Source: Candidatus Iainarchaeum sp. (GTDB lineage: Archaea > Iainarchaeota > Iainarchaeia > Iainarchaeales > JAFCCW01). Taken from it: a stretch of 47,642 bases of DNA. Shown here one piece after another: positions 28,475-46,087 of this stretch. Numbering within the stretch: the stretch's first letter is position 1; every line of letters starts with the position of its first letter. Below the pieces are notes generated by a model, which saw nothing but the letters and a program-made list of their open reading frames with translations, was not told the DNA's origin and ran no database searches. The DNA is taken from contig JAFCCW010000012.1 in the NCBI GenBank assembly GCA_017609985.1, positions 1 through 47,642 of the forward strand, given 5' to 3'. The position numbers and the translations under genes were made by a program.

Positions 28475-30259
28475 ATGGTGCACAAAATAGCCTGCTTTAA
28501 CAAGTCAGTAAACAGTTATAAAAAAGAAATTAAGACCCACAATCCAAAGAACAAACTGTTTGTAATAGAACTTAAACTTGGGGACTGGCATGGATTTTAC
28601 TCTCTTGCACCATTAAGCAGAGCACTGCATGATTTAGGAGCAGATGTGAGCGTGTTTGTGACAAAAGAAAAGAGCAAGGGACTTATTTCAGCAGAAAAAT
28701 GCTGGACATTGTTTGAAGAAATTAAAAATAAAAATAATTCAAAAAAGAAAGGGATAAAGGAACTGAAAGAATTCATTAACGCAGTAAACAAGAAAACAAA
28801 AAGCAAGGATTTTGAAAAACTCTTCAAAAGACCTGAAGTTGTGTTAAAGGGAAACAGTAAAAAAAATGTTTTTGAAGGAACAGAAATCAAGCTCGAGTAC
28901 AGGGACAGATGGTTAAGAAAAAGAAAATGGAAGGCTCTTGTAGAAACAGCTAACCAGATTTGGAAACAAGGTTATGCTCTGAAAAAGACTGAAAGATGCT
29001 CTCTTGGCTTTGAACTAGTGCCTGCATCAAAAGACATGGAGCTTCCGCTTGAAGACTATTTGGACAACTTTGTAATAGCAAATGCAATGGCAGAGACTGC
29101 TCAAAGAAAATGCAAAACAGTTTCAGTGGGATCATCCACAAACAAGAAAAGGCAAACAGACCCTATGAACAGAGTAGATGATTTGATAACAAGCCTAAGC
29201 GGTTGCGAACAATCAAAAGAATCAAAGGAAGGAGTGTTTAAGAAATTTAAAAAATTATCAAAATATGTTTATTCATCACAGCTAAAGTCAAGCGATGCAG
29301 GATTTGGAATCCATGGAACAGGATATGGGGGAAAACATTTCTTTGGAACAACAATTGGATATCCCTCACCAAATGGAAAAACAAGATGGCAAAGTCCAGG
29401 AACCATGTTCTTGAAACCAAGCTGGTTGGACCAAACAAGGATTGATGACAGAATGCCAAAAACAAGATATGCGATAACAGAGACTCTGCCGATAGAGAAT
29501 TTTGTAAGAACATGCAACATAGATTATGTAGAAATGAGAGCGAGAAATGAAGCGATAAAAAAAGTCGTTGAAAAAAGCAAATATCTTTTTGTGAAAGGAA
29601 AGCAGGTTAAAGGAGGACAAACTGACCTGAAAATTGACCTTAGAAAAATTCTTTATGTTTTAAAAAGTGACTCTGACGTAAGACACAAGCTTAACCCTAA
29701 TATGAAAAGCCAAGGAATCAAAGCTGGAATGTATGGCAACTTTCCAGGAGGAGAAGCATTTCTTACACCAGGCCCAATACAGGGAACCGTGATTGGAGAT
29801 GTAGTAATTTCAATCAGCGGAAGCCACACTATTCCTGAATCAAATCCATTGGTTGTAGAATTTAATGGAATGAAATACAAGATTAAATCAGGACCAAAAG
29901 AAATCATTAAAAAAATGAATCAAAAAAAGAATGATTCAAAAAAACTAATCAAAGAATATGAAAAACATAAAAGTATTCCAAAAAAAATAATTGATTCTTA
30001 CAAAAGAAACTTTGAGGGTGTTGGAGAGTTTGCAATAAACACTAACCCAAAAGCAAAACTTGGCAGATACCTGATTGAAAATGAAAAAATTGCAAAAATG
30101 ATTCATATAGCTCTTGGTTCAGGATACGAGCCGGGAAGAGAAACACTTTATCACTGGGATTTTGTAATTAATTCTCCGAGACAAGAACTTGACATTTACG
30201 GCATTGACGAAAAAGGAAAAGAGCAATGGGTTATAAAGAAAGGAAGGTTTGTTGCTTGA
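28475..30259 (+). CDS. M29-like (aminopeptidase T) metallopeptidase with long N-terminal region
   Basis: C-terminal NFPGGEAF, GEFAINTN, NEKI...HIALG, HWD match the M29 catalytic motifs. Confidence 0.7.
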   Translation: MVHKIACFNKSVNSYKKEIKTHNPKNKLFVIELKLGDWHGFYSLAPLSRALHDLGADVSVFVTKEKSKGLISAEKCWTLFEEIKNKNNSKKKGIKELKEFINAVNKKTKSKDFEKLFKRPEVVLKGNSKKNVFEGTEIKLEYRDRWLRKRKWKALVETANQIWKQGYALKKTERCSLGFELVPASKDMELPLEDYLDNFVIANAMAETAQRKCKTVSVGSSTNKKRQTDPMNRVDDLITSLSGCEQSKESKEGVFKKFKKLSKYVYSSQLKSSDAGFGIHGTGYGGKHFFGTTIGYPSPNGKTRWQSPGTMFLKPSWLDQTRIDDRMPKTRYAITETLPIENFVRTCNIDYVEMRARNEAIKKVVEKSKYLFVKGKQVKGGQTDLKIDLRKILYVLKSDSDVRHKLNPNMKSQGIKAGMYGNFPGGEAFLTPGPIQGTVIGDVVISISGSHTIPESNPLVVEFNGMKYKIKSGPKEIIKKMNQKKNDSKKLIKEYEKHKSIPKKIIDSYKRNFEGVGEFAINTNPKAKLGRYLIENEKIAKMIHIALGSGYEPGRETLYHWDFVINSPRQELDIYGIDEKGKEQWVIKKGRFVA

Positions 30260-31317
30260 AGCAGGAAACAATTTTTTCCCAAAAAAATCTGTACGCTGTT
30301 CTTCTTAAAGCCCCAGATCCTGCATTCTATTATTTTTCAGGAATAGAATTTGGACAGAGTGAAGGAAGCATTCTTATTCTTAAAAAAAAAGAGAAACCAG
30401 CAATTCTTTCAAGCAGTCTTGAAAAAGGAAATATTTCTTCAAATAAAAAAGTCAGAGGAATTCAGTATGATTCAAAAGAAGACATTAAGAAAAAACTGTC
30501 AAGAGAACTGCAGGGAAAAAGAATTGGACTTAATTCAAACTGGATTAGCAAGAGAACAATTGACTCGCTAAAGAAGATTGTGAAAGAAAAGAAATGGATT
30601 GGAGCAGAAGAAGAAATCGGAACCGTGAGATCAATCAAGTCAGACAAGGAAATAAGATTAATCTCAAAAGCAGTTGGAGAAACAGAAAAAATTCTTGACA
30701 AAATTCCAAAGATTCTAAAAAAGGGAATGACTGAAAAAGAGCTTGCGACAGAATTGCACTGCAGGGCACTAAAAGCAGGAGCACAGGGCCTTTCGTTTCC
30801 AACGATTGTTGCTTCCGGAAAAAGAGGAAAAACTCCACACCACATAACATCAGATAAAAAAATAGAGAAAGGATTTTTGCTTGTGGACTTTGGAATTAGA
30901 ATGAACAATTATTGTTCCGATCTTAGCAGAACATTTTATGTGGGAAAAGCTTCAAAAAAAGACAAAATGCTTTACCAAGGAGTTTTTGAAACAAAAACTG
31001 AAGCAGAAAAACTCATGATCGGCGGAACGCGATGCGGAGAAATATTTGAAAAAGCAGACACCAGCTTAAAGCAAAAAACAGGACATTGCCTTGTGCACGG
31101 ACTGGGACACGGGCTTGGAATTGAAGTCCATGATTTTCCAAACGGATTTTTGAAAGACTGCAAAGAAATAATAATGAACAATATGGTGTTTACCATGGAA
31201 CCAGCAGCCTATGGAAGATTTGGAGGAATAAGAATTGAAGATGACCTTGCAATAAAGAACAAGAAAGCAAAGGCTTTAAGTCAGGCTCCAAGAGAACTTG
31301 TTGAAATTAGCAGATAG
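30256..31317 (+). CDS. pepQ: Xaa-Pro peptidase (M24B, prolidase)
   Basis: RSIKS, FPTIVASG, PHH, DFG...YCSDLSRT, HGLGHGLGIEVHD, EP, GIRIEDD motifs. TTG start overlaps the upstream stop. Confidence 0.9.
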   Translation: MKQETIFSQKNLYAVLLKAPDPAFYYFSGIEFGQSEGSILILKKKEKPAILSSSLEKGNISSNKKVRGIQYDSKEDIKKKLSRELQGKRIGLNSNWISKRTIDSLKKIVKEKKWIGAEEEIGTVRSIKSDKEIRLISKAVGETEKILDKIPKILKKGMTEKELATELHCRALKAGAQGLSFPTIVASGKRGKTPHHITSDKKIEKGFLLVDFGIRMNNYCSDLSRTFYVGKASKKDKMLYQGVFETKTEAEKLMIGGTRCGEIFEKADTSLKQKTGHCLVHGLGHGLGIEVHDFPNGFLKDCKEIIMNNMVFTMEPAAYGRFGGIRIEDDLAIKNKKAKALSQAPRELVEISR

Positions 31318-34526: not shown

Positions 34527-34617
34527 AAGAAAAATACTAATAAGAAAAATTAAAAAACAATGTTTTTTGAGAAAAAATTACCCATAACCTGTTTTGATTT
34601 TGAAAAAAGGTGTAAAA

Positions 34618-35526
34618 ATGAATGATTCTTTGAATGCTGAAATTTTAAAGCTTAAGCAAGAAAAAAATGCAGTTATTCTTGCACACAACTATCAATTGCC
34701 TGAAGTGCAGGAAATTGCTGATTTTCTCGGAGACAGTCTAGAGCTGGCAAAAAAAGCAAGCACTGTTGATGCAGAAATTATCGTGCTTTGCGGGGTTGAC
34801 TTTATGGCAGAAACAGCAGCTATTCTGAATCCAGACAAGAAAGTTCTTCTGCCAAGCCTTGATGCAAAATGTCCCATGGCAGCTCAGCTAAAAGCAGAGG
34901 AAATAGTAAAGGCAAAAGAAGAGCATTCAAAAGCAAAAGTAGTTCTTTATGTAAACACTTCTGCGGATTGCAAAGCCTTGGCTGATGCCTGCTGCACTTC
35001 TGCAAACGCTCCGAAAATTGTTGAAGCAATGGATTCAGAAGAAGTAATCTTTGGACCAGACAAAAACCTAGGCTGGTTTGTAAACCAGAGAAGCAGTAAA
35101 AAGATTATAGATATTCCTGCAAGCGGATACTGTTATGCTCACAGAAAAATAATGGGAGAAGAAATAATCGAACAAAAAAATAAGCATCCAGACGCACTTG
35201 TGCTGGCGCATCCAGAATGCAATCCAGAAGTGCAAGAGCTAGCAAACAGAATTGAAAGCACAAGCGGAATGTTGAGAGTGGCAAAAGAAGAATCTGCAAA
35301 CGAATTTATCATCGCAACAGAGAAAGAAATGCTTCACAGGCTGAAAAAGGAAAACCCTACTAAAAAATTCTATGCAGCCTCTGAAAATGCAGTTTGCGGA
35401 GCAATGAAAAAAATTAATTCAGAGAATGTTTTAGAGGCATTGAAAGAAGAAAAAAATGAAGTCAAGATTTCCAAAGAAACAACTGCTCTTGCAAAGAAAG
35501 CAATTGAGAGCATGCTTGAAATCTAA
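34618..35526 (+). CDS. nadA: Quinolinate synthase
   Basis: ILAHNYQ, GDSLEL, CGVDFMAE, CPMA, YVNTS, CTSANA, AHPEC motifs. Confidence 0.96.
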   Translation: MNDSLNAEILKLKQEKNAVILAHNYQLPEVQEIADFLGDSLELAKKASTVDAEIIVLCGVDFMAETAAILNPDKKVLLPSLDAKCPMAAQLKAEEIVKAKEEHSKAKVVLYVNTSADCKALADACCTSANAPKIVEAMDSEEVIFGPDKNLGWFVNQRSSKKIIDIPASGYCYAHRKIMGEEIIEQKNKHPDALVLAHPECNPEVQELANRIESTSGMLRVAKEESANEFIIATEKEMLHRLKKENPTKKFYAASENAVCGAMKKINSENVLEALKEEKNEVKISKETTALAKKAIESMLEI

Positions 35527-35577
35527 AAGTCTAGCAAAGAAAGCAATTGAGAGCATGCTTGAAATCTAAAAGTCTAG
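35492..35577. repeat. Perfect 43-bp tandem duplication of the nadA 3' end
   Basis: CAAAGAAAGCAATTGAGAGCATGCTTGAAATCTAAAAGTCTAG at 35492-35534 and 35535-35577. Confidence 0.92.
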
Positions 35578-35744
35578 TCTTGGAAAAAACTGTCAATCGT
35601 TGCCTGCTTTTTATGAACACCCTTAATTGCGGAACTTGAATTTCCTATTTCAAACTCAAAGCGTGCAAATTCAAGACCATAGTTTTCAAGGAGTTCCAAT
35701 GCATTCTTTCCAATCTCAGGAGCGAGAAGAACCCTTCTGGTTTG
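35574..35744 (-). pseudogene. nucS: nucS 3' remnant (C-terminal ~56 aa)
   Basis: QTRRVLLAPEIGKNALELLENYGLEFARFEFE...IKGVHKKQATIDSFF aligns with the C-terminus of intact NucS at 42316 (QTRGILLAPDIRKNAKEHLESLGLEFAKIDFE...IKGLQKKQETLDKFY). Confidence 0.85.
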
Positions 35745-35906
35745 GAGGAAAAGGTTACAAGAAACAACCACTTAAAGCAGCAGAATCATTTCAGGGAATG
35801 GTATTTTGTTGTGACTGACGCAGGAATGAAGAAAGATTATGAAAAGCACGGGAAGGCGCTGACGAGGGCAGAAGTGAAGGAGAAGATAAAAGAATGTTTT
35901 AACTAA
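35742..35906 (+). pseudogene. C-terminal fragment of an unknown island gene truncated at the left junction
   Basis: Open frame LEEKVTRNNHLKQQNHFREWYFVVTDAGMKKDYEKHGKALTRAEVKEKIKECFN* begins exactly where nucS similarity ends. Confidence 0.5.
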
Positions 35907-35972
35907 AAGACAATTAAAGAAAGTTAAACCAAAAAGTTTATTTTTTAAAGGGTTTCTGTCGCATAGTTAATT

Positions 35973-38321
35973 ATGGCAATTAACATTATGCTGCCTGAAA
36001 TGAATACTGACAGCGAATCAACAAAGAATCTCATCATAAACATTTTAAGCAAGGAATGGCCCTTGTCGGCAAAAAAGGTGCATTATAGGATAAAGAAGAT
36101 TTATGCGATTAACTGCACTTACCAAGCAATACACAAGCAGCTAAGGTTATTAACAAAGAGAAAAGTGCTGGAAAAAGACGGAAAAAATTATCGACTTAGT
36201 ATAGAGTGGTTGGACGCACTCAAAAATTTTAGCGATGAAATTAAGAAAGATTATAACAAGTGTGGTGTAGCCAAGAAAAAGCCAGAGGCTGAAGAAAAGG
36301 CTGATTTGAAATATTTTAAAAAGTACAGGCAAAGCATAGCATCCCTGCTTAGGACAAGGGTTAGAGGCTTTCCAAAGCTGGATTGTGTCAGAACAGAGCT
36401 TGGTGAATCAGGCCAGCGAATTGAGGTTGGCAAATCGGGTTCTGCAGTAAAACAAGTTCTCAAAACAGGCGGAACCTCGCTTTTGCTGGGGCCTTCGGGC
36501 GCGGGAAAAACAACCACTTTAACCCAGATAGGGCTCAAGGCATGCGACTCAAGCAAGATACCAGTATTATTCAATTTGGCGAATTTCAATGAATGTGACT
36601 TGGATGAAATAATCCAGCAAAAAATCTTTGAGGTGTCGGGAGAGCGAATAAGCACTGGTTTTATCGACGAGAACCTCAAAAAAGGGGCTTTTGTTTTTCT
36701 GTTTGACGGCTTGAATGAGATAACTGGCGAACTATATGCTGAAAAGCGTGCTCTTGACAAAGCGGAGTTTATAATAAACCAGATAAATCACTTCGGCTCC
36801 AACAAAAACTATTCAAAAAACCAGTTTGTAATCGCTTGCAGGACAAACGCGGACCCTAAATCAAGTTTATCTGCCACCACATTCATGCTTTGCCCATTCA
36901 CAGAAAACCAGATTAAAAAATACCTCCTTAAGAGAGGCTTAAAAAATTTGTTTGAGCAAATAGCCCAAGACAACAAAATATTCGAGCTCTGCAAAAACCC
37001 GTTAATACTGGATATGACAGTGAATATTTATAATTCCAGCAAAAACCTGTTCCATAACAAAACAAAAATGTACCAAGAGTATTTCACCAACACAATATAT
37101 GGCTGGGAATCAAAAAATATCAAAAAACTGGAACTAATCGCACTAGACTTGGAAGAAGCACTGTCAAAACTGGCTTTTCAGACAATAACCAAAGGAACCC
37201 ATATCTCGATAGAAGAATTCCTTAAGACAATGAGAAAAAACTGCAAACAAATGGGGTTGGATAAGGAAATCGAAAACAAAATCGTTGACGCCGCAATCAG
37301 AAGTAACATAATTCAGCTGGAAGGCACAAAATGCTACTTTCGGCACCACAGCTTCCAAGAATTTTTTGCAGCAAAAGAATTATTCAGCCTTTTCAATGAC
37401 GGCCAAAAGATTAACAAAAGAACAATAGGAGGCATCGCTGGAAAGAAACCGTTCCTAGAACCATTAAAGTTTCTTTCCGGACTGTTGGAGGATTCGACAG
37501 AGCTTGTAAACCTTCTCTCGGGGCACAACCGATTTGTTGCTGGAGAGTGCATTATAACCGCGAAATCAATAGATAAAAAAACCTTCGAAATGAACGTGAA
37601 GAAACTAATTAAAACCGTTGGCGAGAGAAATTTGACAAATGTTTGGTATGCTGTGGATATAATTAACCGCATTGGCTCAAAAGCAACTGCGTTAGTCATG
37701 CAAGAAATAGAAAAAGGAACCGATCCAGACCTGAAAAGAAGAATGTACTGGGTTGCGGGAGGGATATCTGACCCAGGGCTTAACGAATTTTTAGTTAATA
37801 GAGTGATGAAAGAAACGGACGAACATAATATTGTCCACTTTCTATTAGGGTTGCAGGAAAGCTCTTCAAAAGAGCGGGCGTTTATAGCTGAATCCTTTTT
37901 AGGGCACCAAAACCCTGTTGTTGGCGGCGATGCATTCATTGCCTTAAAAAACCATGAACAGGTTAACCAACGGTTATTAAAAAAACACGGTTTTGATTTA
38001 GATAAATTACAGCAGAAACTGGTTTCAAATTTAGATGCAACCGAGTTTTGGGAAAGAATGCATTCAATTTTGGTTTTAGGGAAACTAAAACACGGTGAAG
38101 TTGTCGAAAAGCTGGTTGGATTGCTTGATGACAAAGATACTTCAATTCAATGGTATGCTACATTGGCGTTGTGCCAAATAGGGGACAAAAATACTCTGGA
38201 CTTGCTGCAAAAGGCTTTGGAAACCCAAAGCAAGAACAAAGTTGTTTACCAAAAAGCACTGGAGGCGGTTCAAGGTGGGGTTACAGACAGAAAGGATCTG
38301 GCAAAAATATGGAGTTTCTAA
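35973..38321 (+). CDS. wHTH-NACHT-HEAT repeat protein (STAND NTPase, NLR-like)
   Basis: N-terminal wHTH (WPLSAKKVH...TYQAIHKQL), Walker A GPSGAGKTT, Walker B FLFDGLNE, CR, KNPLIL, FRHHSFQEFFAA, C-terminal HEAT-like repeats. Confidence 0.88.
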   Translation: MAINIMLPEMNTDSESTKNLIINILSKEWPLSAKKVHYRIKKIYAINCTYQAIHKQLRLLTKRKVLEKDGKNYRLSIEWLDALKNFSDEIKKDYNKCGVAKKKPEAEEKADLKYFKKYRQSIASLLRTRVRGFPKLDCVRTELGESGQRIEVGKSGSAVKQVLKTGGTSLLLGPSGAGKTTTLTQIGLKACDSSKIPVLFNLANFNECDLDEIIQQKIFEVSGERISTGFIDENLKKGAFVFLFDGLNEITGELYAEKRALDKAEFIINQINHFGSNKNYSKNQFVIACRTNADPKSSLSATTFMLCPFTENQIKKYLLKRGLKNLFEQIAQDNKIFELCKNPLILDMTVNIYNSSKNLFHNKTKMYQEYFTNTIYGWESKNIKKLELIALDLEEALSKLAFQTITKGTHISIEEFLKTMRKNCKQMGLDKEIENKIVDAAIRSNIIQLEGTKCYFRHHSFQEFFAAKELFSLFNDGQKINKRTIGGIAGKKPFLEPLKFLSGLLEDSTELVNLLSGHNRFVAGECIITAKSIDKKTFEMNVKKLIKTVGERNLTNVWYAVDIINRIGSKATALVMQEIEKGTDPDLKRRMYWVAGGISDPGLNEFLVNRVMKETDEHNIVHFLLGLQESSSKERAFIAESFLGHQNPVVGGDAFIALKNHEQVNQRLLKKHGFDLDKLQQKLVSNLDATEFWERMHSILVLGKLKHGEVVEKLVGLLDDKDTSIQWYATLALCQIGDKNTLDLLQKALETQSKNKVVYQKALEAVQGGVTDRKDLAKIWSF

Positions 38322-38701
38322 AACCAGGGATTTCACACAACAAGATTTATTCTGTTTTGAAGGACTTGATTCAGGAAAAGATTGTGCTAAGCACGAACAC
38401 CAACCCGATTAACTATCATGTGAAGTCTCCTTCCAGGACTTTTGAGCGGCTTGTGAACAGGAAGGTTGCAGAGCTTGAAAAGAGGCCCGGGGAATTCGAC
38501 AAAATACTCAACAGCGAACCCCCAGCCAGCGAAAAAGAGTATGTGATAAAGTTCACTGAAAAGCAAACCAAACTTTTTGACATCAAAAACAAAATCAGGG
38601 TCAGTGAATTGCGGGAAGTAAAACAGGTTATAAATCAGCTTAACATCTATGTTAAGGAGCTGGAGCCGAAGAAAGAGTATAATTTTGCTTTTTACAAATA
38701 G
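38309..38701 (+). CDS. TrmB-family HTH protein, probably N-terminally truncated
   Basis: GISHNKIYSVLKDLIQEKIV...NPINYHVKSP matches the TrmB recognition helix and wing. The preceding helices are absent. ATG at 38309 overlaps the NACHT stop. Confidence 0.6.
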   Translation: MEFLKPGISHNKIYSVLKDLIQEKIVLSTNTNPINYHVKSPSRTFERLVNRKVAELEKRPGEFDKILNSEPPASEKEYVIKFTEKQTKLFDIKNKIRVSELREVKQVINQLNIYVKELEPKKEYNFAFYK

Positions 38702-38761
38702 TTGAGCAATAAAAGCAGGGGCCATTTTATAATATTGGTTTCTATGTCTTTTTGGATTTTT

Positions 38762-39547
38762 TCAGATGTTGATTGTTGAGATTTTATATCTTTCTTTGAT
38801 TTCTTCTGCGGATTTTGTTTCTTTTCCATTTACAAATAAATATTGTAAAGATAGTTTGTGAAAATTTGGTTTGTGGATTCCTTGTTTAGTTGATTCATTA
38901 GTAACAAACAGCAGAGCACGCTGGTTTTTGCTTAGATATTCCCATCTTTTTTTCATTTTGCCTAAATTGCCCATTGGAGTGTGTGCTGGGTTTAGGAAAA
39001 TGTTGGTATTTTTCAAAATTGAGTCAAATTTTTTATTTAATTCTGTTTCACTGCTTCTAAGTGAAACCCTGTTTCCTTGTTTCTGTTTGTTCTTTAGAAT
39101 ATTGTTTTCTCCGCAAATAATTAGGCGGACTTTTTTGTTGTTGACTTTGAAAAATCGCTCCGATTCAAGTTTGTCTAAATATTCTGGAATTGTTGTTTTG
39201 AGAGAGTGAATATCTTTACTGCTTGTGAAAACCTGTTTTATTTTCTTTTTAATTAGTTTTTTTCCTTTTGCCACATAGAATCCGACATCTGACTTAGGAT
39301 TATCTTTGTTTCTGTGTCCGTCTCCCACTTCAAAGATATATGTTGTGTGTTTATTTTTGTTGTTTGTTAAAACAGAATCAAGTTCTTTTCTGTTGGACAG
39401 AGTCCATCCAGAAAATAAGATTAAATCCACATCAAATACATTGTTCAATATTTCTGTCATAAGCCGCGTGTTATTTTTAGAAATGAAATTAGTTTTGGAT
39501 TTTTTGGAACTAGATTTTGTGATAAATGATACAACAGAACATTTCAT
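38762..39547 (-). CDS. Hypothetical protein, divergent carbon-nitrogen hydrolase (nitrilase) fold
   Basis: DVDLILFSGW (cf. DLIVFPE), VRLIICGENN (cf. GxxICxE/D nucleophile elbow), IFLNPAH. Confidence 0.55.
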   Translation of the reverse strand: MKCSVVSFITKSSSKKSKTNFISKNNTRLMTEILNNVFDVDLILFSGWTLSNRKELDSVLTNNKNKHTTYIFEVGDGHRNKDNPKSDVGFYVAKGKKLIKKKIKQVFTSSKDIHSLKTTIPEYLDKLESERFFKVNNKKVRLIICGENNILKNKQKQGNRVSLRSSETELNKKFDSILKNTNIFLNPAHTPMGNLGKMKKRWEYLSKNQRALLFVTNESTKQGIHKPNFHKLSLQYLFVNGKETKSAEEIKERYKISTINI

Positions 39548-40114
39548 TTAGTTTTCCCCCAGCAAGTTTTTGAATTTTTCAACATCCTCGGTTTTTTTTT
39601 GATCTAATTCACACCAGACATAATCTTTGGCAAATAATCGCACAGTAGGTTTTAAGCCCAAGAGAGCCGGCGCAAAATCTTTGAGAGTATCATACCAGGC
39701 TCTTTGTTCATCTCTAAAGGGAGGATCATTGTCTTTTTTATGAATTGATTTGCATAAACTAAGCCATTTTTCTTTATCAAATCCCAGTTTTAAGTGTTCA
39801 GGATATGCATTTAATGCAATATCTCTTTGTTTAGTAAAATGCTGTGATTCATCAAATTCCACTATGAGCTTGTGCTCAACAGCAAAAAAGTCAACTGTAG
39901 AAAGTTTTTTAGCGCGAACAAAATTGTCATACTCCCGATTAGTTTCAAGCAAATCAAAGATTTTTTTTAAATCTGAATAAAATTTGTTGGATTCAAAAGC
40001 ACTTATTTTTGCGGGCAAATTAAGGGAATGTTCTTTCTTAACTTCGCCAAAAATAACACTGAGCAAATCGTATATTCTCTTTTTGCATTCCTTGCATCTT
40101 TCACTATGGCTCAT
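39548..40114 (-). CDS. Predicted Vsr/DUF559-like PD-(D/E)xK endonuclease
   Basis: VDFFAVEHKLIVEFDESQHF (D-x8-E-x-DExxH) motif, plus RDEQRAWYDTLKD. Confidence 0.7.
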   Translation of the reverse strand: MSHSERCKECKKRIYDLLSVIFGEVKKEHSLNLPAKISAFESNKFYSDLKKIFDLLETNREYDNFVRAKKLSTVDFFAVEHKLIVEFDESQHFTKQRDIALNAYPEHLKLGFDKEKWLSLCKSIHKKDNDPPFRDEQRAWYDTLKDFAPALLGLKPTVRLFAKDYVWCELDQKKTEDVEKFKNLLGEN

Positions 40115-40207
40115 TTGCGACTCCGACCTTGTTTTTATTTAATGTTTCTTCTTATTTTTTCCAACTAATTTCAAATCCGCCTTTTTCATGCTTTTTCCCG
40201 TGTGTTT

Positions 40208-40810
40208 TTACAATCTGGCTATTCTTCCCGCATCGGTCAGTAGCAGCTCGTTTTCCTTGTTTTCTTCTATCAGGCCCCTCACCCTTAATTCTTTTATGTG
40301 CCTGTACAACATTGCTCTGCTTATCTTTAGGTGTTCTGCGAACTTGCTGAGGTTTTTGCTTTCTTCAATGTTTTTAAGGATTTTAAGCTGGCTTTTGTTT
40401 AAATTAAATGATAGAACAGGCAGGTCAAGAATTTGATTTGTTTCTTCAATACAATATAATGCTTTTTTCACCCGATTGGAACGCGCGTATGAACCCAGAA
40501 GCAAACCCATTGATTGAGTTTTTCTGCCAGGGGTAACGTTCAAGTATAGTTCATCTTTATCTGGAATGTCATCAATTAAGATTACACATTCCTTTGCAAT
40601 GCCAACAACATCGTAGAGCCCTACTCTTTTTCGCTTTACTTTAATGGCTTTTCCAAAGCTTGCTTCAATTGTTTTTGCTGCTTTTTTCTGGGTTTTGTCG
40701 GGTTTTTTATCCATAAGCAGGTAAAGTCTTTCAATGCCAAGCTTTGTTACAAGTAGCACGATGGAATTTGTAGAATATGTTGTTGTTATTAGAACGCGGG
40801 GCAAATCCAA
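40208..40810 (-). CDS. Csa3-like CARF + winged-helix transcriptional regulator
   Basis: Rossmann-like N-domain (VLITTTY, LYDVVGIAKEC, LNVTPGRKTQSMGLL; cf. NxSGGxK/R) and C-terminal HTH (ISRAMLYRHIKELRVRGLI...LTDAGRIA). TTG start with GGAGGTGG RBS. Confidence 0.8.
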   Translation of the reverse strand: MDLPRVLITTTYSTNSIVLLVTKLGIERLYLLMDKKPDKTQKKAAKTIEASFGKAIKVKRKRVGLYDVVGIAKECVILIDDIPDKDELYLNVTPGRKTQSMGLLLGSYARSNRVKKALYCIEETNQILDLPVLSFNLNKSQLKILKNIEESKNLSKFAEHLKISRAMLYRHIKELRVRGLIEENKENELLLTDAGRIARL

Positions 40811-40969
40811 ACCACCTCCTGCACTTTACTTATTTGATTGAAATTATTAAACCTCATTTGTACCACTATCACTACAAGTAATCCAGAAAATTTAAATAGT
40901 TAACCTAAAGTGAGCAGTGTATCGTTTTTATGATACATTTAAATATATTTTGTGACAACGGTTTTAGGT

Positions 40970-42118
40970 ATGGATGAAACTGCTTTGACCTTGAGGAACG
41001 TGACAAAAACAAACAAGTTTTGTGAAGTCAAATCTGTTGAGCAACTTATTGGGCTCGCGGGATCGTGTTATGAGTTAGAAGCGAGCATAGCTCTGCTCAA
41101 GAGTAATGGCGAGTTTGAAAAGTGGTTGAAAACAAACAAATTGCATGAATTGGCTAATAACCTTAAGCCGTTTAAGAATCAACCACTGCCTGTTTTTGTT
41201 GAAGCACTTAAGGTTTTTTTGGGTGACCATGGCGGGAAACAGGTTTCGTTTGATTCTCTTACAGGAATTGATGAACTAAAACGCTTTCTGGTAAACCGGT
41301 TTGTAAAACCTAGGCAGTTTAGGGAAAAAGCAAGAGAATTAAGGCAAGAGGTTGAAGATGGTATCATGTTTTATGGCCCGCCAGGTTGTGGAAAGACTAT
41401 GGTAGGATTAGCTCTTGCGAATGAATCGAATAGTTTGCTCATATACCGTTCTGCTGCCGACTTGGAAAAAACACGGTGCAATGCAACCGAAATGCTGCAC
41501 GGTCTTTTCACAATAGCAAGAAAGTCAGCACCTTCAATCCTGTTTTTTGATGAATTTGAATACTTTGGTCAGATGAGAAGCAATGATTCAAGACTTTCGA
41601 TGGCAACTTCGCTGTTTTTGTCTGAGATGGGTGGAAACAAAAAAAACGAGGAAATTCTCGTCATAGGAGCAACCAACTATCCCTGGAGTATTGACCCAGC
41701 ATTACTCAGAACTGGACGATTCAGCCACCTGTTTTATATGGGCCCACCTAATCAAAACCAGCGCAAAGAATTGTTTAAATTTTATTTGAATGACTTACCA
41801 TGCGAAAAGATTGATTTGAATTATTGTGTAAACAATACAAATTTTTATTCCTGCAGCGATATTTCCCAATTGTGCAGGGACGCTGCTTCTTTTGTATGGA
41901 ATGATTTCCTGCAAAATAGTGTTGAGAGAAAAATTGGAACAGAAGACTTGAAGAAAGCTATTAAACGCAGGCCTTCCTCCATAGTCCACTGGTTTGACTT
42001 GTTTAAGGCACATTCGCCCACCACAGAACAACAAATCAGATTTAAAAAGCTTTTTGATGATTTGGAAGACTATAAACTTTTGAGCAATGACACGAAGAAA
42101 AACAGCAACATTTATTAA
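40970..42118 (+). CDS. AAA+ ATPase (classic AAA clade, Cdc48/Vps4-like single module) with small N-terminal domain
   Basis: GPPGCGKT, LFFDEFE, GATNYPWSIDPALLRTGRF second region of homology. Confidence 0.9.
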   Translation: MDETALTLRNVTKTNKFCEVKSVEQLIGLAGSCYELEASIALLKSNGEFEKWLKTNKLHELANNLKPFKNQPLPVFVEALKVFLGDHGGKQVSFDSLTGIDELKRFLVNRFVKPRQFREKARELRQEVEDGIMFYGPPGCGKTMVGLALANESNSLLIYRSAADLEKTRCNATEMLHGLFTIARKSAPSILFFDEFEYFGQMRSNDSRLSMATSLFLSEMGGNKKNEEILVIGATNYPWSIDPALLRTGRFSHLFYMGPPNQNQRKELFKFYLNDLPCEKIDLNYCVNNTNFYSCSDISQLCRDAASFVWNDFLQNSVERKIGTEDLKKAIKRRPSSIVHWFDLFKAHSPTTEQQIRFKKLFDDLEDYKLLSNDTKKNSNIY

Positions 42119-42142
42119 CACCTACAGCATTATATAGTGGCT

Positions 42143-42271
42143 ATGCCTTACAGGAAAGGAGTTACTACAATCCAGTTGAGTTCTGAGACGCGGGAGAAGC
42201 TGAAAGCTCTTGGGAAGAAAGGGGAAACTTACGATGACATCATCCGGGCACTCATGAAGAAGAATAAATAG
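42143..42271 (+). CDS. Small ribbon-helix-helix (antitoxin/CopG-like) protein, 42 aa
   Basis: Manual translation MPYRKGVTTIQLSSETREKLKALGKKGETYDDIIRALMKKNK, an archaeal TTIQ...ETYDDII RHH pattern. Confidence 0.8.
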   Translation: MPYRKGVTTIQLSSETREKLKALGKKGETYDDIIRALMKKNK

Positions 42272-42315
42272 AATTTTTTCATGTTTGCGCTTTTTGTTTC
42301 TTCTTAAAAGGGGTC

Positions 42316-43074
42316 ATGGAGCAGGCTATAGCCATAGGCAAAATCAAGGACGGAATCTCAAAAAAAGAGCTTGTAACTATTTTTGGCGTGTGCAACGTGG
42401 ACTATCTCGGCAGGGCCGCGAGCAAGCTCCCGAAAGGAAAAAGGCTCATCATGATTAAGGGTGACAACTCTATTAGCATTCACCAGAACAGGCTTGTCAG
42501 GCCCACGAATTACATGATGAACACGCGCATTGCAATAGAAGAACAGGAAAACAATGTTGTGCTCAAAGCAAGGCGCGTAAAGCCGAGAGAAAAGCTCACA
42601 GTGGTGTTTGACAAGATTCATGACGTTCAAACATACGGCATGGAAATCACGAATGACCTTCGGTTAACTGGCTCAGAAAGGGATTTGAACGAGCTTCTCA
42701 TGCAAGACCTCTCGATGATAGAGCCCGGGTTAAAACCTGTTAACCAGCAGGAAAAATTCAGAAAAGGAATAGCAGACATCATAGCTGAAGATTCAAACGG
42801 AAACTATGTAGTAATAGAATTGAAGAGACGGCAGGCAGACTATGCAAGCGTGACACAGTTGAAACGTTATATGAGCCAAGTGGAGAAAATGAAGGGAATT
42901 CAAACAAGAGGAATACTCCTCGCCCCGGACATAAGGAAAAACGCTAAAGAGCACCTCGAAAGTTTGGGTTTGGAGTTCGCAAAAATCGACTTTGAATTAC
43001 TGCCATCGAGCGAAGAAAAAGCGCGAATCAAAGGGCTTCAAAAAAAGCAAGAAACATTAGACAAATTCTATTAA
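42316..43074 (+). CDS. nucS: Endonuclease NucS/EndoMS (intact copy inside island)
   Basis: CNVDYLGRAASKL, RLIMIKGDNSISIH, RPTNY, GSERDL, ADIIAED...VVIELKR, QLKRY, RGILLAP motifs. Confidence 0.93.
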   Translation: MEQAIAIGKIKDGISKKELVTIFGVCNVDYLGRAASKLPKGKRLIMIKGDNSISIHQNRLVRPTNYMMNTRIAIEEQENNVVLKARRVKPREKLTVVFDKIHDVQTYGMEITNDLRLTGSERDLNELLMQDLSMIEPGLKPVNQQEKFRKGIADIIAEDSNGNYVVIELKRRQADYASVTQLKRYMSQVEKMKGIQTRGILLAPDIRKNAKEHLESLGLEFAKIDFELLPSSEEKARIKGLQKKQETLDKFY

Positions 43075-43108
43075 ACACCTTTTAGATTGGTTAAGTTCAT
43101 ATATTTTT

Positions 43109-43186
43109 TATATAACTTATATTTATAAATGACACGACTTTGTTATATATAACTTATATTTATATACTACTTGTGTTAGTTATATA
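43109..43186 (+). promoter_or_regulatory. Repeated operator-like sites upstream of the type IV TA operon
   Basis: 19-bp direct repeat TATATAACTTATATTTATA at 43109 and 43146, plus an inverted half-site AGTTATATA at 43178. Confidence 0.55.
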
Positions 43187-43199
43187 CTAGTGTTATAGC

Positions 43200-43820
43200 A
43201 TGGTTAAAACTAAAACTAAGAAACTTCTCGCATTACTATTGGATGCAGATTATGTTCCTAAAAGCAAGTATGCTTTAGCCAAAAAAGCCGGATGTAGCCC
43301 TACTTGGGTACTAAAATATTTTAAGCTTCTCGAAAACAAAAAAATTGTTAAAGAGATTAAAGTAAAAAATGCTAAGGCCCTATTTGAATTGTTCCATGAG
43401 AAAAGACCCAAGAAACAAATTTACAAAACCTATTCGATAAATGATTCTTCAAAACTAATCGAATCAGTCAAAAGCAGTGGAATGGATTATGCATTCACAA
43501 CCTATGTTGCAGAGAATATCCTGCAAAAACATTTGTTTTTGCACAGAACCGACATCTATGTAAAGAAAGAAAATTTTGAAGCTTGGCATGAAAAGATGAG
43601 CAAAATAGGATTATGTGGAGGCGGAAACGTTAGATTAATCATTTCTGAATACGAAGAGCTTTTTAACAAAAAGCAAGTTAACAGTGAGAATAAAAAATAT
43701 AAAAGTTGGATAGTAAACACGCCTCAGCTGATATCAGACTTGTTTGTAGAAGACGGTCCTGCAAAAGAAGCAGGAGAAATGCTGTTGAAAAAACTTGGGA
43801 AAAAAATAGAGGCAAAATAA
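43200..43820 (+). CDS. AbiEi-like antitoxin / wHTH transcriptional regulator
   Basis: N-terminal HTH (SKYALAKKAGCSPTWV), YAFTTYVAE, TDIYV, IVNTPQLISDL. Directly abuts a nucleotidyltransferase gene. Confidence 0.7.
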   Translation: MVKTKTKKLLALLLDADYVPKSKYALAKKAGCSPTWVLKYFKLLENKKIVKEIKVKNAKALFELFHEKRPKKQIYKTYSINDSSKLIESVKSSGMDYAFTTYVAENILQKHLFLHRTDIYVKKENFEAWHEKMSKIGLCGGGNVRLIISEYEELFNKKQVNSENKKYKSWIVNTPQLISDLFVEDGPAKEAGEMLLKKLGKKIEAK

Positions 43821-44612
43821 ATGTATCTTAAAATAGAGACTCAAACATCCTACGAGTATCTCCAAAAAGTCGTTTCTGTTTTGCAGGAACCTATTTGCAT
43901 TTTGGGTGGCTGGGCAGTTTACCTCACAGTAAACGACAACTATAAAAAAAATGTTGGGAAAGAATATTTAGGTTCAAGAGATATTGATTTAGGGTTTCAT
44001 TTGGACAAAAATGCCAGCGAGAAAGAAATGAAACAATCAAGTTTTTACCTTGCTTTGAAGACATTAGAAAAAGACGGCTTTGAGTTAACTTCTTTCAGAC
44101 TTGTCAAACATCTTGACCGAGAAACAGGCAAAGTCCTGTCCCAAGAAGAATATGTAAAAAAAGATCAATTTGATTTAATAGAAATGTATGTTGATCTCAT
44201 AGTAGACAACCTTCCAAACGGGTTCAAGAAAACTTTCAAAATGAACCTAATAGACGAAACATTATTAGCACCTGTTTTTGAAAATCCAAAAAACCACATC
44301 ACCTTAACCGAATTCAAGAAAAAACTTATCCTCCCAAAACCAAGCTTGCTATTAGCCACAAAACTCAAGTCCCTGCCTGGAAGAGACAAAGAACACAAAA
44401 GACAAAAAGACATCTACGACATAGCCGCACTATTACTGTACGCTCCAAAAAGAATAGATGGAAGCGAATTGAAACAGTTCCTGCCCACAAAATCATTAAA
44501 ATCCATCAAACAAATAAACGACAAAGAAATAGAAAAAACAGAATCCAGCCTAGGTCTACAAAAAAATCAATTCAAAACAGCAGTACTTGCACTCAAAAAA
44601 GAAATTGAATAA
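43821..44612 (+). CDS. AbiEii/MenT-like nucleotidyltransferase toxin
   Basis: ILGGWAV, SRDIDLG, VDL, ATKL...R...KRQKDIYDI motifs of the Pol-beta-like AbiEii family. Confidence 0.78.
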   Translation: MYLKIETQTSYEYLQKVVSVLQEPICILGGWAVYLTVNDNYKKNVGKEYLGSRDIDLGFHLDKNASEKEMKQSSFYLALKTLEKDGFELTSFRLVKHLDRETGKVLSQEEYVKKDQFDLIEMYVDLIVDNLPNGFKKTFKMNLIDETLLAPVFENPKNHITLTEFKKKLILPKPSLLLATKLKSLPGRDKEHKRQKDIYDIAALLLYAPKRIDGSELKQFLPTKSLKSIKQINDKEIEKTESSLGLQKNQFKTAVLALKKEIE

Positions 44613-44691
44613 CCAAAAAACAACACATTTCTAGGAACTGCTAGTCTATCTAACAGCGCACATTCCCATCTAACCGTTGCCTTTTTATATG

Positions 44692-44780
44692 TTATTCCAC
44701 ATGGCAGCTGCCAACAATGCACAGCAGGTGTTTCCTGTGAATAGCCTGCTCTATTTTTTCCTTTGCCTGCTCCAGCTCAT
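44692..44780 (-). pseudogene. nucS: nucS 5' remnant (N-terminal ~28 aa)
   Basis: ELEQAKEKIEQAIHRKHLLCIVGSCHVE* aligns with NucS KIKDGISKKELVTIFGVCNVDY. It stops at the conserved Tyr codon. The ATG at 44780 is one base out of frame. Confidence 0.7.
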
Positions 44781-44824
44781 GGAAACCAATAGAATAAGAA
44801 AGAAAAAGAATTAAAGATGCAGGG

Positions 44825-46087
44825 CTAATCGAAAACCGACTCGCCCGCAAACTTGCCTGCTTTTTCTTCAATGCGAAGAAGCTGGTTGTATTTTGCGTTT
44901 CGCTCACTCCTCGCAGGAGCACCGAACTTGCTCTGGCCAGTGGAGAGACCAACAACAACATCTGCAATCAAAGAGTCTTCGGTTTCACCAGAACGATGGC
45001 TTACAACAACAGTCCAGTCATTATCAAAAGCAAGCTTTGCTGCATTGATTGATTCAGTGATTGAACCAATCTGGTTTATCTTGAGCAAGAGAGAATTGCA
45101 TGCTTTCTCATCAATTGCCTTCTTGATATACTTTGTGTTTGTTACAAGCAAGTCATCGCCGACTATTTGGACTTTGTTTCCAATTTTTTCAGTAAGCATT
45201 GCCCAGCCCTCCCAGTCGTCTTCAGCCATTCCATCTTCAAGGGAAACAATTGGATACTTGTCAATCAGCTCTGCATAAAAGTCAACAAGTTCTCCGCTGG
45301 AATACTCTTTTCCATAAAGCTTGTATTTTCCATCAGCATAGAATTCAGATGCTGCAGAATCTATTACAAAGGAAATCTTGCCTTCATAACCTGCTTTCCT
45401 AACCGCCTGAAGCATCAACTCCAAGCGTTCCTCTGTGTTTTTTACTGGAGGAACAAAACCGCCTTCGTCTCCAATGAGTGTAGCAGAAGCACCAAATTTT
45501 TTTTTCAGAATTGACTTCAAAGCATGATAGGATTCTGTTCCTGCTTGAAGAGCTTCTGAAAAAGAATCAAAATTCATTGGAAAAAGCATCTGTTCCTGAA
45601 TGTCTTCTTCAAGGCCAGCGTGCCTTCCACCATTCATTACGTTAAGCTGGGGAACAGGAAGCTTGAAATCAGAAATTCCAGCAAGACCTCCAATGTATTC
45701 ATACAGGTCCTTGCCTGCTTCAACAGAACCAGCTCTGCAAACAGCCATGCTGACGGCAAGAATTGCGTTTGCTCCAAGAACAGACTTGTTTTCTGTGCCA
45801 TCAAGCTCAATCATTGCGTTATCAATTTCTGCCTGTTGCAAAACATCCATTCCGTTAACTGCTTCGGCTATCTTACTATTTACATTTTCAACTGCTTTGT
45901 GAACTGCCTTACCTCCAAATTCAGAGCCACCATCTCTCATCTCAAGAGCTTCTCTTGAACCAGTGCTTGCTCCGCTTGGAACAATTCCAAAAAATTTGTG
46001 TCCGTTAACTGATAGTTCTGCTTCAACAGTAGGGTTTCCCCTGCTGTCAAGAACCTGTCTTGCTTTAATGTTTTCAATTTCTGTCAT
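44825..46087 (-). CDS. eno: Enolase
   Basis: LDSRGNPTVE, VPSGASTG, GDEGGF, VGDDL, LLLKINQIG, SHRSGET, RSERNAKYNQLLRIEE motifs. Confidence 0.97.
   Translation of the reverse strand: MTEIENIKARQVLDSRGNPTVEAELSVNGHKFFGIVPSGASTGSREALEMRDGGSEFGGKAVHKAVENVNSKIAEAVNGMDVLQQAEIDNAMIELDGTENKSVLGANAILAVSMAVCRAGSVEAGKDLYEYIGGLAGISDFKLPVPQLNVMNGGRHAGLEEDIQEQMLFPMNFDSFSEALQAGTESYHALKSILKKKFGASATLIGDEGGFVPPVKNTEERLELMLQAVRKAGYEGKISFVIDSAASEFYADGKYKLYGKEYSSGELVDFYAELIDKYPIVSLEDGMAEDDWEGWAMLTEKIGNKVQIVGDDLLVTNTKYIKKAIDEKACNSLLLKINQIGSITESINAAKLAFDNDWTVVVSHRSGETEDSLIADVVVGLSTGQSKFGAPARSERNAKYNQLLRIEEKAGKFAGESVFD

Follow-up and report, generated by a model that had tools for sequence, protein, structure and literature searches.

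How did a cell come to carry the two ends of a broken nucS on either side of an island that itself holds a complete nucS of a different kind? The question is raised by contig JAFCCW010000012.1 (GCA_017609985.1) of Candidatus Iainarchaeum sp., here genome G000, whose 47,642 nt are called the window below. The assembly is a MAG of 37 contigs, 86.6% complete and with 2.97% contamination. Iainarchaeota are a DPANN group with genomes of about 1 Mb, from which, to our knowledge, almost no mobile elements have been characterised. NucS/EndoMS combines an N-terminal PH-like DNA-binding domain with a C-terminal PD-(D/E)xK nuclease domain.

Remnants of the resident nucS

The preliminary description of this DNA placed two minus-strand nucS fragments on the flanks of the island, and the comparison with intact NucS proteins bears this out. 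Our reference for both remnants was P0121, an intact 251-aa NucS from the protein collection, which together with P0126 is nearest to them. The N-terminal remnant (44695-44780, minus strand) is 79% identical to P0121 residues 2-29 (22 of 28 positions; E 2e-9, tblastn against the window), and the C-terminal remnant (35574-35744, minus strand), which comprises residues 196-251 and the stop codon, is 86% identical (48 of 56 positions; E 2e-26 in the same search). Residues 30-195 match nothing in the window or elsewhere in the 37-contig assembly. Read on the minus strand, the frame from 44778 to 44695 gives ELEQAKEKIEQAIHRKHLLCIVGSCHVE, that is, codons 2-29 with C-H-V-E as the last four residues; the next codon is TAA (44694-44692), in the position of Tyr30 in the C-Y-V-E-Y of P0121. 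The ATG at 44780 is one base off the NucS reading frame, apparently because, judged against the MELEQ of P0121, a single nucleotide was deleted behind the start codon. The C-terminal remnant reads QTRRVLLAPEIGKNALELLENYGLEFARFEFEIGNSSSAIKGVHKKQATIDSFFQD from 35744 to 35577, with its stop at 35576-35574.

Both remnants match one NucS significantly and in gene order. Of 24 NucS loci from genomes of the same order, all were matched by the C-terminal remnant (E as low as 1e-21) and 12 by the N-terminal remnant at E<=0.01 (best 3e-7). In Pfam, the C-terminal remnant matched NucS_C below the cut-off (E 0.04) and the N-terminal remnant matched nothing, so that Pfam alone would have missed both; a match to NucS was thus significant by direct comparison with P0121 and not by profile. 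Against the island copy of NucS (nucS_B), the N-terminal remnant gave no BLASTP match and the C-terminal remnant is 55% identical. In the NucS tree the remnants group with P0121 (98% SH-aLRT), to which they are 83% identical over 84 columns. Alignment and phylogeny together show the two, on this sequence basis, to be pieces of one resident nucS. It belongs to what we call clade A, the resident type, as opposed to clade B, the foreign type that includes nucS_B. An SSV-type split of an element gene was rejected: N-piece, insert, and C-piece follow one another along the strand of the gene as they would in a host gene that had been interrupted.

The remnants adjoin host genes on both sides. On the left, nadA (34594-35526, plus strand) converges on the C-terminal remnant, whose stop lies 5 nt from that of nadA if a perfect 43-bp tandem duplication at this flank is discounted; nadA homologues 42-58% identical to it adjoin nucS in five genomes (G015, G016, G025, G091, and G109). 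On the right, the N-terminal remnant starts 44 nt downstream of the stop codon of eno (44825-46087, minus strand), a gene that accompanies nucS at 17 loci of clade A and 6 of clade B. The strand of the remnants is opposite to the nucS orientation of all 17 clade-A relatives, so either an extra inversion or a lineage-specific orientation must be assumed; it is matched only by clade-B genomes such as G091. The nucS regions of relatives such as G005, G034, and G089 often lie at contig ends or on short contigs.

Between the remnants, the island spans 35745-44694, about 8.95 kb. Its base composition gives no clear foreign signal (G+C 0.372, against 0.386 for the rest of the window). No tRNA gene was found in the window, a search of 35000-45500 against Rfam gave just two sub-threshold chance matches, and no long direct or inverted repeats bracket the island. 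The island's G+C is a mosaic of blocks with differing values.

The element end and its recurrence at nucS codons 26-30

A conserved 25-nt element end, CTAACCGTTGCCTTTTTATATGTTA (PE; 44670-44694, plus strand), abuts the C-x-V-E-Y codons of nucS and finishes with three bases complementary to the TAA found in place of the Tyr30 codon. With a second CTAACAG half-site 20 nt inward (44650-44656), it forms two CTGTTA-type direct repeats spaced 20 nt apart. It is single-copy in the window and was matched in none of 100 window shuffles. The same motif stands at the same nucS codons in G083, G087, G089, G093, G095 (twice), G107, and G109. A survey for insertions at these V-E-Y codons therefore yields nine junctions in eight Iainarchaeales genomes (G000 and seven other MAGs) of three families, all at codons 26-30, which makes these codons a site-specific target, as had been proposed from the single case. 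All eight genomes are MAGs and five of them share a family, so these events do not count as wholly independent.

Among 196 genomes, a 22-mer of the motif at 0-1 mismatch was found in G000, G083, G107, and G095 only, each time at nucS codons 26-30. At 2 mismatches it also matched G032, G026, G141, G145, G162, and contig C12 of G087, with no nucS beside the matches, and a reversed-pattern control gave a similar number; these were dropped. A 27-mer junction pattern, searched in 215 genomes with up to 2 mismatches, found G000, G083, G089, G093, G095 (twice), and G109, against 2 matches for its reversed control. The G087 junction was found at 2 mismatches. A junction-pattern match in G044 proved not to be a nucS junction (E 0.53 to P0121) and was left out of the count. 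In the junction alignment, of which the first 100 columns were used, the eight N-side junctions break within the same 3 nt despite differing flanking codon sequence, and the attachment site can be given as C-x-V-E-Y with a DNA core of about C-TAT-GTN-GAR-TAY. The ninth junction, in G107, has the opposite polarity, its element end abutting sense codons 26-248, which a simple directional integrase would not predict; the corresponding C-side pattern occurred in G107 only across the 215 genomes. An att overlap of 7-13 nt is suggested solely by comparing the G107 junction with the others, and no locus has both ends.

What integration does to the gene is seen best in the relatives. Displaced N-pieces at the host nucS position follow a peptidase gene (homologue of window 30226-31317) or a MazG gene, and in G083, G089, G093, and G109 the pieces equivalent to that of G000 occupy the host's own nucS position. 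The NucS proteins of G093 and G095, of the same genus, show 57% identity in residues 1-30 and 87% in the other 219 (Fisher p 2e-4), and the displaced piece in G093 is 80% identical to the N-terminus of G095. At the level of sequence this shows that in G093 insertion displaces the host's first 29-30 codons and substitutes an element-borne 5' end, leaving nucS intact. In G093 and G087 alike, insertion swaps in a new promoter and the first 30 codons, and nucS stays whole. Some 7 kb of ordinary-looking genes (radical SAM, UbiA) separate the displaced piece from the intact gene in G093, where the extent of the element is ambiguous. Integration was repeated in G095, which has displaced fragments in tandem. 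The view that the element broke nucS therefore holds only in part: the gene is fragmented in G000, whereas in relatives integration at the same site rebuilds it. Since it does so, the loss of resident nucS function in G000 may come from a later deletion and not from the insertion itself.

Behind the motif, the cargo is entirely different between genomes. The elements of G000, G083, and G107 share a module in which a foreign-clade nucS_B is accompanied by a VapB-like RHH gene and a TrmB-like gene, and the space beside the end motif is shown to be occupied by changeable two-gene toxin-antitoxin-like cassettes.

No integrase, transposase, or other recombinase was found among the island ORFs or beside any of the nine junctions; a PF00589 search of G000, G083, G107, G093, and G095 gave matches on other contigs only. 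In the window and 10 related loci, with up to 4 mismatches allowed, each unit had one end motif and no inverted counterpart, unlike a transposon with terminal inverted repeats and target duplication; the far ends in G000, G083, and G107 are deleted or off-contig, so that for these three the result is not final. At no locus were the two ends of an element seen together, a free or circular form was not found, and the viral contig collection held no exact match to the end motif. The single-ended arm motif is easier to reconcile with a recombinase that acts on an asymmetric attP than with a transposon whose ends are inverted.

The island nucS and its neighbours

As the preliminary description had it, an intact and divergent nucS lies inside the island on the opposite strand. 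The product of nucS_B (42316-43074, plus strand; 252 aa) is 57% identical to P0121, and both its NucS domains pass the curated Pfam cut-offs (NucS_N, E 1e-21, 77.1 bits against 23.9; NucS_C, E 2.3e-24, 86.2 bits against 24). It is the sole NucS_C match and the only complete nucS in the assembly, in which, at 86.6% completeness, no MutS (MutS_V) was found either. The protein aligns with EndoMS 5GKE (E 9e-46, residues 10-236) and with NucS 2VLD, and its aeDs.../vviELKrr matches grDs.../vvlELKrr of 5GKE, keeping the D...E-L-K motif. Residues D159, E168, and K170, invariant across 17 clade-B sequences, are those we take to be the catalytic Asp...Glu-x-Lys of the nuclease domain. The C-terminus ends in ...IKGLQKKQETLDKFY, with K244 and Q245 invariant in clade B, and presumably resembles a PIP-like consensus for putative binding of the sliding clamp (PCNA). 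In the mismatch-binding loop NucS_B has N-Y, common to both local clades, against N-W in the Thermococcus enzyme. Because both domains and the D...E-x-K motif are kept, along with the putative clamp-binding tail, NucS_B most likely now does the cell's mismatch repair.

The gene does not share the history of its host. In the NucS tree it falls in a separate clade of 26 rows (98% SH-aLRT), and its nearest relatives are 80% and 78% identical. Of 196 genomes, only 8 have a NucS at least 70% identical to it. They lie scattered among four other families (f20, 3 of 17; f27, 1 of 6; f17, 3 of 5; f4, 1 of 3), and the copies of their family mates are 54-61% identical. All markers of G034 are distant from those of G000 (Eno 55%, Prs 50%, SAHH 61%, Hef 50%), and its NucS is 72% identical to NucS_B; G015, closest overall by markers (Eno 66%, Prs 61%, SAHH 73%, Hef 59%), has a NucS of just 57-59%. 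The well-supported separate clade, the scatter across and within families, and the disagreement with four marker proteins support the earlier claim that the island copy is a xenologue, as judged from these comparisons. Relative to eno, clade-A nucS is convergent at 17 of 17 loci, whereas clade-B nucS runs in the same direction at 4 of 6. This is the pattern to expect should clade B as a rule enter antiparallel to the gene that it replaces, as in G083. No close relative of NucS_B was found in the viral contig collection, and nothing above noise that resembled remnants or the end motif was found near the nucS_B of G104, G091, G111, G112, and G022. With the island NucS as query, no nucS match was obtained in 63 of the order's 196 genomes, nor in 8 of the 55 of high quality among them, so nucS is dispensable in the Iainarchaeales group. 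That the host of the island described here might be locked to it, and its defence cargo thereby locked in, as the preliminary description had it, is no more than plausible.

Directly upstream of nucS_B lies a 44-aa RHH gene (42137-42271, plus strand; DUF7557, VapB-antitoxin-like; Pfam 4.9e-10). Its homologues, 74-78% identical, stand upstream of nucS_B only in G083 and G107 (2 of the nucS loci of 49 other genomes), and a complex prediction for the RHH protein with NucS_B gave no support. The RHH-nucS_B pair has the top G+C of the region, close to that of eno. The third part of the shared module, the TrmB-like gene (38330-38701, plus strand), is 5'-truncated: it is 59% identical to residues 59-181 of a 182-aa G107 protein, 30% identical to the G083 protein, and lacks about its first 58 codons; full-length homologues carry Pfam TrmB. 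Upstream of it lies a gene for a 782-aa wHTH-NACHT-HEAT STAND NTPase (35973-38321, plus strand; Pfam NACHT 4.5e-7, HEAT_2 1.3e-11; PADLOC matches weak), which is probably a later replacement block that cut the TrmB-like gene off, and a 54-aa ORF without a family match (35742-35906, plus strand) overlaps the left junction.

The island was described earlier as defence-like, and this characterisation stands in part. Three of its remaining genes are on the minus strand: a 261-aa ORF with no Pfam or PADLOC match and the lowest G+C of the island, 0.31 (38762-39547); a 188-aa DUF7255/DUF559-like protein of the Vsr-type endonuclease fold family (39548-40114; Pfam DUF7255 9.3e-7); and a 200-aa Csa3-like regulator with CARF-like and wHTH parts (40208-40810; PADLOC CARF3 1.6e-60; Pfam HFX_2341_N 2.6e-9). 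On the plus strand follows a 388-aa IetA-like AAA+ ATPase (40952-42118; Pfam AAA 6e-28; PADLOC IetA 1.7e-22). PADLOC found no complete known defence system in the island, the CARF3-wHTH protein and the IetA-like ATPase being without partners; the cargo is thus defence-like, with no recognised system. Between nucS_B and the element end, a two-gene cassette (43200-44612) consists of a 206-aa ORF with a weak N-terminal HTH (43200-43820, plus strand; Pfam HTH_11 E 0.049) and a 263-aa ORF weakly assigned as nucleotidyltransferase-like (43821-44612, plus strand; Pfam AbiEii E 0.022), neither with a PADLOC match. As AbiEii scores 15.1 bits against a cut-off of 22.5, the pair does not qualify as an AbiE type IV toxin-antitoxin system; the equivalent position in G095 holds a true AbiEii (7.5e-29).

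Origin of the locus and likeness to known systems

Taken together, these results make it likely that 35745-44694 is the immobilised remainder of a site-specific integrative element, of a family that uses nucS codons 26-30 as its attachment site in Iainarchaeales. In G000, an element would have integrated into the minus-strand nucS between nadA and eno, and with its own nucS_B present the resident gene would no longer have been needed. Codons 30-195 and the far end of the element, and with that end any recombinase and the ability to excise, would then have been lost through a deletion or replacement linked to the NACHT block, after which the remnants would have decayed, as in the frameshift after the ATG. 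That a later deletion took the far arm, as first proposed, agrees with the single element end, the missing 58 or so codons of the TrmB-like gene, and the absence of nucS codons 30-195. Our verdict is that the feature is real and combines a target-regenerating integrative element with xenologous displacement. The earlier interpretation thus survives in its targeting, its xenologue, and its later deletion, and only partly in its broken gene and its defence island.

Could the same junctions have arisen with no dedicated recombinase? Homologous recombination or gene conversion of incoming foreign DNA with the conserved stretch of nucS just past codon 30 might repeatedly have swapped the nucS 5' cassette together with the DNA upstream of it, the end motif being a conserved piece of a widely exchanged upstream cassette. 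The failure to find a recombinase would suit this, as would the strong conservation of the residues after codon 30 (GRAASKLPxGKR), the ordinary metabolic genes inserted in G093, and the swapping of N-termini on an otherwise vertical protein. Such exchange would scatter its crossovers, however, whereas the eight N-side breaks coincide to within 3 nt; direct repeats spaced by 20 nt are typical of protein-binding arms; and the cargo behind the motif is unrelated from genome to genome. We regard this account as distinctly unlikely. Less probable again is a reading in which the resident gene, still oriented as it was ancestrally, is the intact one on the plus strand and the minus-strand pieces are foreign debris of mobile DNA, although convergence on eno, as in the intact copy, holds in 17 of 17 clade-A relatives, and the G+C of RHH-nucS_B is, like that of eno, high for the region. 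The remnants, moreover, are 83% identical to P0121, yet no Eno above 70% identity to that of G000 exists among 5.8 billion proteins, so the remnant lineage looks closer than any known organismal relative. Against this reading, the remnants adjoin host genes directly and are ordered and oriented as a single gene would be; clade-A NucS is found in the genomes nearest by markers (G015, G019, L026-L032); the N-pieces of G083, G089, G093, and G109 sit where the host's own nucS belongs; and RHH-nucS_B travels with the end motif in three families.

The left junction (35744/35745) rests on one MAG contig, and a chimera of strains or of two loci, with remnants produced by wrong joins, would be in keeping with a contaminated 37-contig MAG, with the duplication at the left flank, and with the frequency of contig ends in the nucS regions of relatives. 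It is nonetheless very improbable, since the right junction recurs with diverged sequence in seven independently assembled MAGs, and a wrong join would not yield an N-piece that is both frameshifted and diverged along with a C-piece that matches it in lineage. Hardly any weight is left for the idea that nothing was targeted, and that nadA-nucS-eno is a variable hotspot in which resident nucS decayed through unrelated insertions once a second copy had come. The nucS-eno gap does range from 9 bp to 9.4 kb among relatives, and the island is a mosaic of blocks; one conserved motif of 22-25 nt against the same codon in eight genomes is not chance, given no match in 100 window shuffles and exact and 1-mismatch matches confined to nucS codons 26-30.

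A stronger reading of the integrative element, to which we give little credence, is that such elements are repair-gene hijackers. They would land in the 5' end of the sole mismatch-repair gene, and some would bring their own NucS under a VapB-like RHH regulator, placing fidelity and the barrier to recombination with diverged DNA under element control; once the resident gene had decayed, loss of the element would create a mutator, making it an addiction module for its toxin-antitoxin and defence cassettes. If true, this would explain the repeated replacement of native NucS by a foreign clade across Iainarchaeales families. On the preferred, more modest reading of an immobilised integrative element, the locus is a captured intermediate of xenologous gene displacement with its vehicle named, and nucS-targeting elements offer a mechanism for the scattered second NucS clade of the order. 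It would be the first look at mobile DNA integration in Iainarchaeota and the first attachment site described inside nucS/EndoMS, no such report having been found in the portion of the literature consulted. The short conserved DNA site and the defined target could be used to mine metagenomes for the missing recombinase.

In xenologous gene displacement in situ, a foreign orthologue takes over at the resident locus and the resident gene is lost. Here, too, a foreign nucS has most likely taken over at the resident locus; unlike the general case, G000 preserves an intermediate with remnants, and the displaced gene itself served the element that acted as vehicle as its attachment site. A link between mobile elements and the control of mutation rate in archaea is thereby raised, parallel to SpyCI in the mutL of streptococci, likewise a mobile element lodged in the 5' end of a mismatch-repair gene. 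While integrated, SpyCI prevents mutL from being transcribed; its excision and reintegration follow the growth phase, so that the mutator state can be switched. The nucS elements, by contrast, rebuild the gene or bring a replacement, and the G000 copy, lacking one end, is unable to leave; the two cases also differ in domain of life and in repair system (NucS against MutL). Compared with the mismatch endonuclease EndoMS/NucS of structures 5GKE and 2VLD (PMC4838380, PMC5290159), NucS_B has both domains and the D...E-L-K motif, and differs in its N-Y for N-W and in the VapB-like RHH gene before it.

Intragenic attachment sites in protein-coding genes have precedents in archaea: BJ1 in an HMG-CoA reductase gene, Msmi-Pro1 in a heavy-metal efflux gene, and NitGar-E6 in an AsnC regulator gene (PMC8371274). 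Unlike the nucS elements, those encode their own integrases, and none is reported, in the portion of that review available to us, to carry a replacement copy of its target; nucS is absent from the intragenic targets of archaeal tyrosine recombinases given in the same portion. Close parallels in behaviour are genomic islands that integrate into tRNA or tmRNA genes and regenerate their target (Islander, PMC4383910; archaeal cases, PMC8371274). As far as these sources could be consulted, the nucS elements are like them in having a site-specific target, in the displaced target fragment that marks one island end, in the regeneration of nucS by element-borne sequence in relatives, and in the tandem displaced fragments of G095. 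They are unlike them in that no integrase gene was found and three carry a whole second copy of the target, and in that the target is a protein-coding repair gene, of which the 5' end and promoter are replaced rather than the 3' end.

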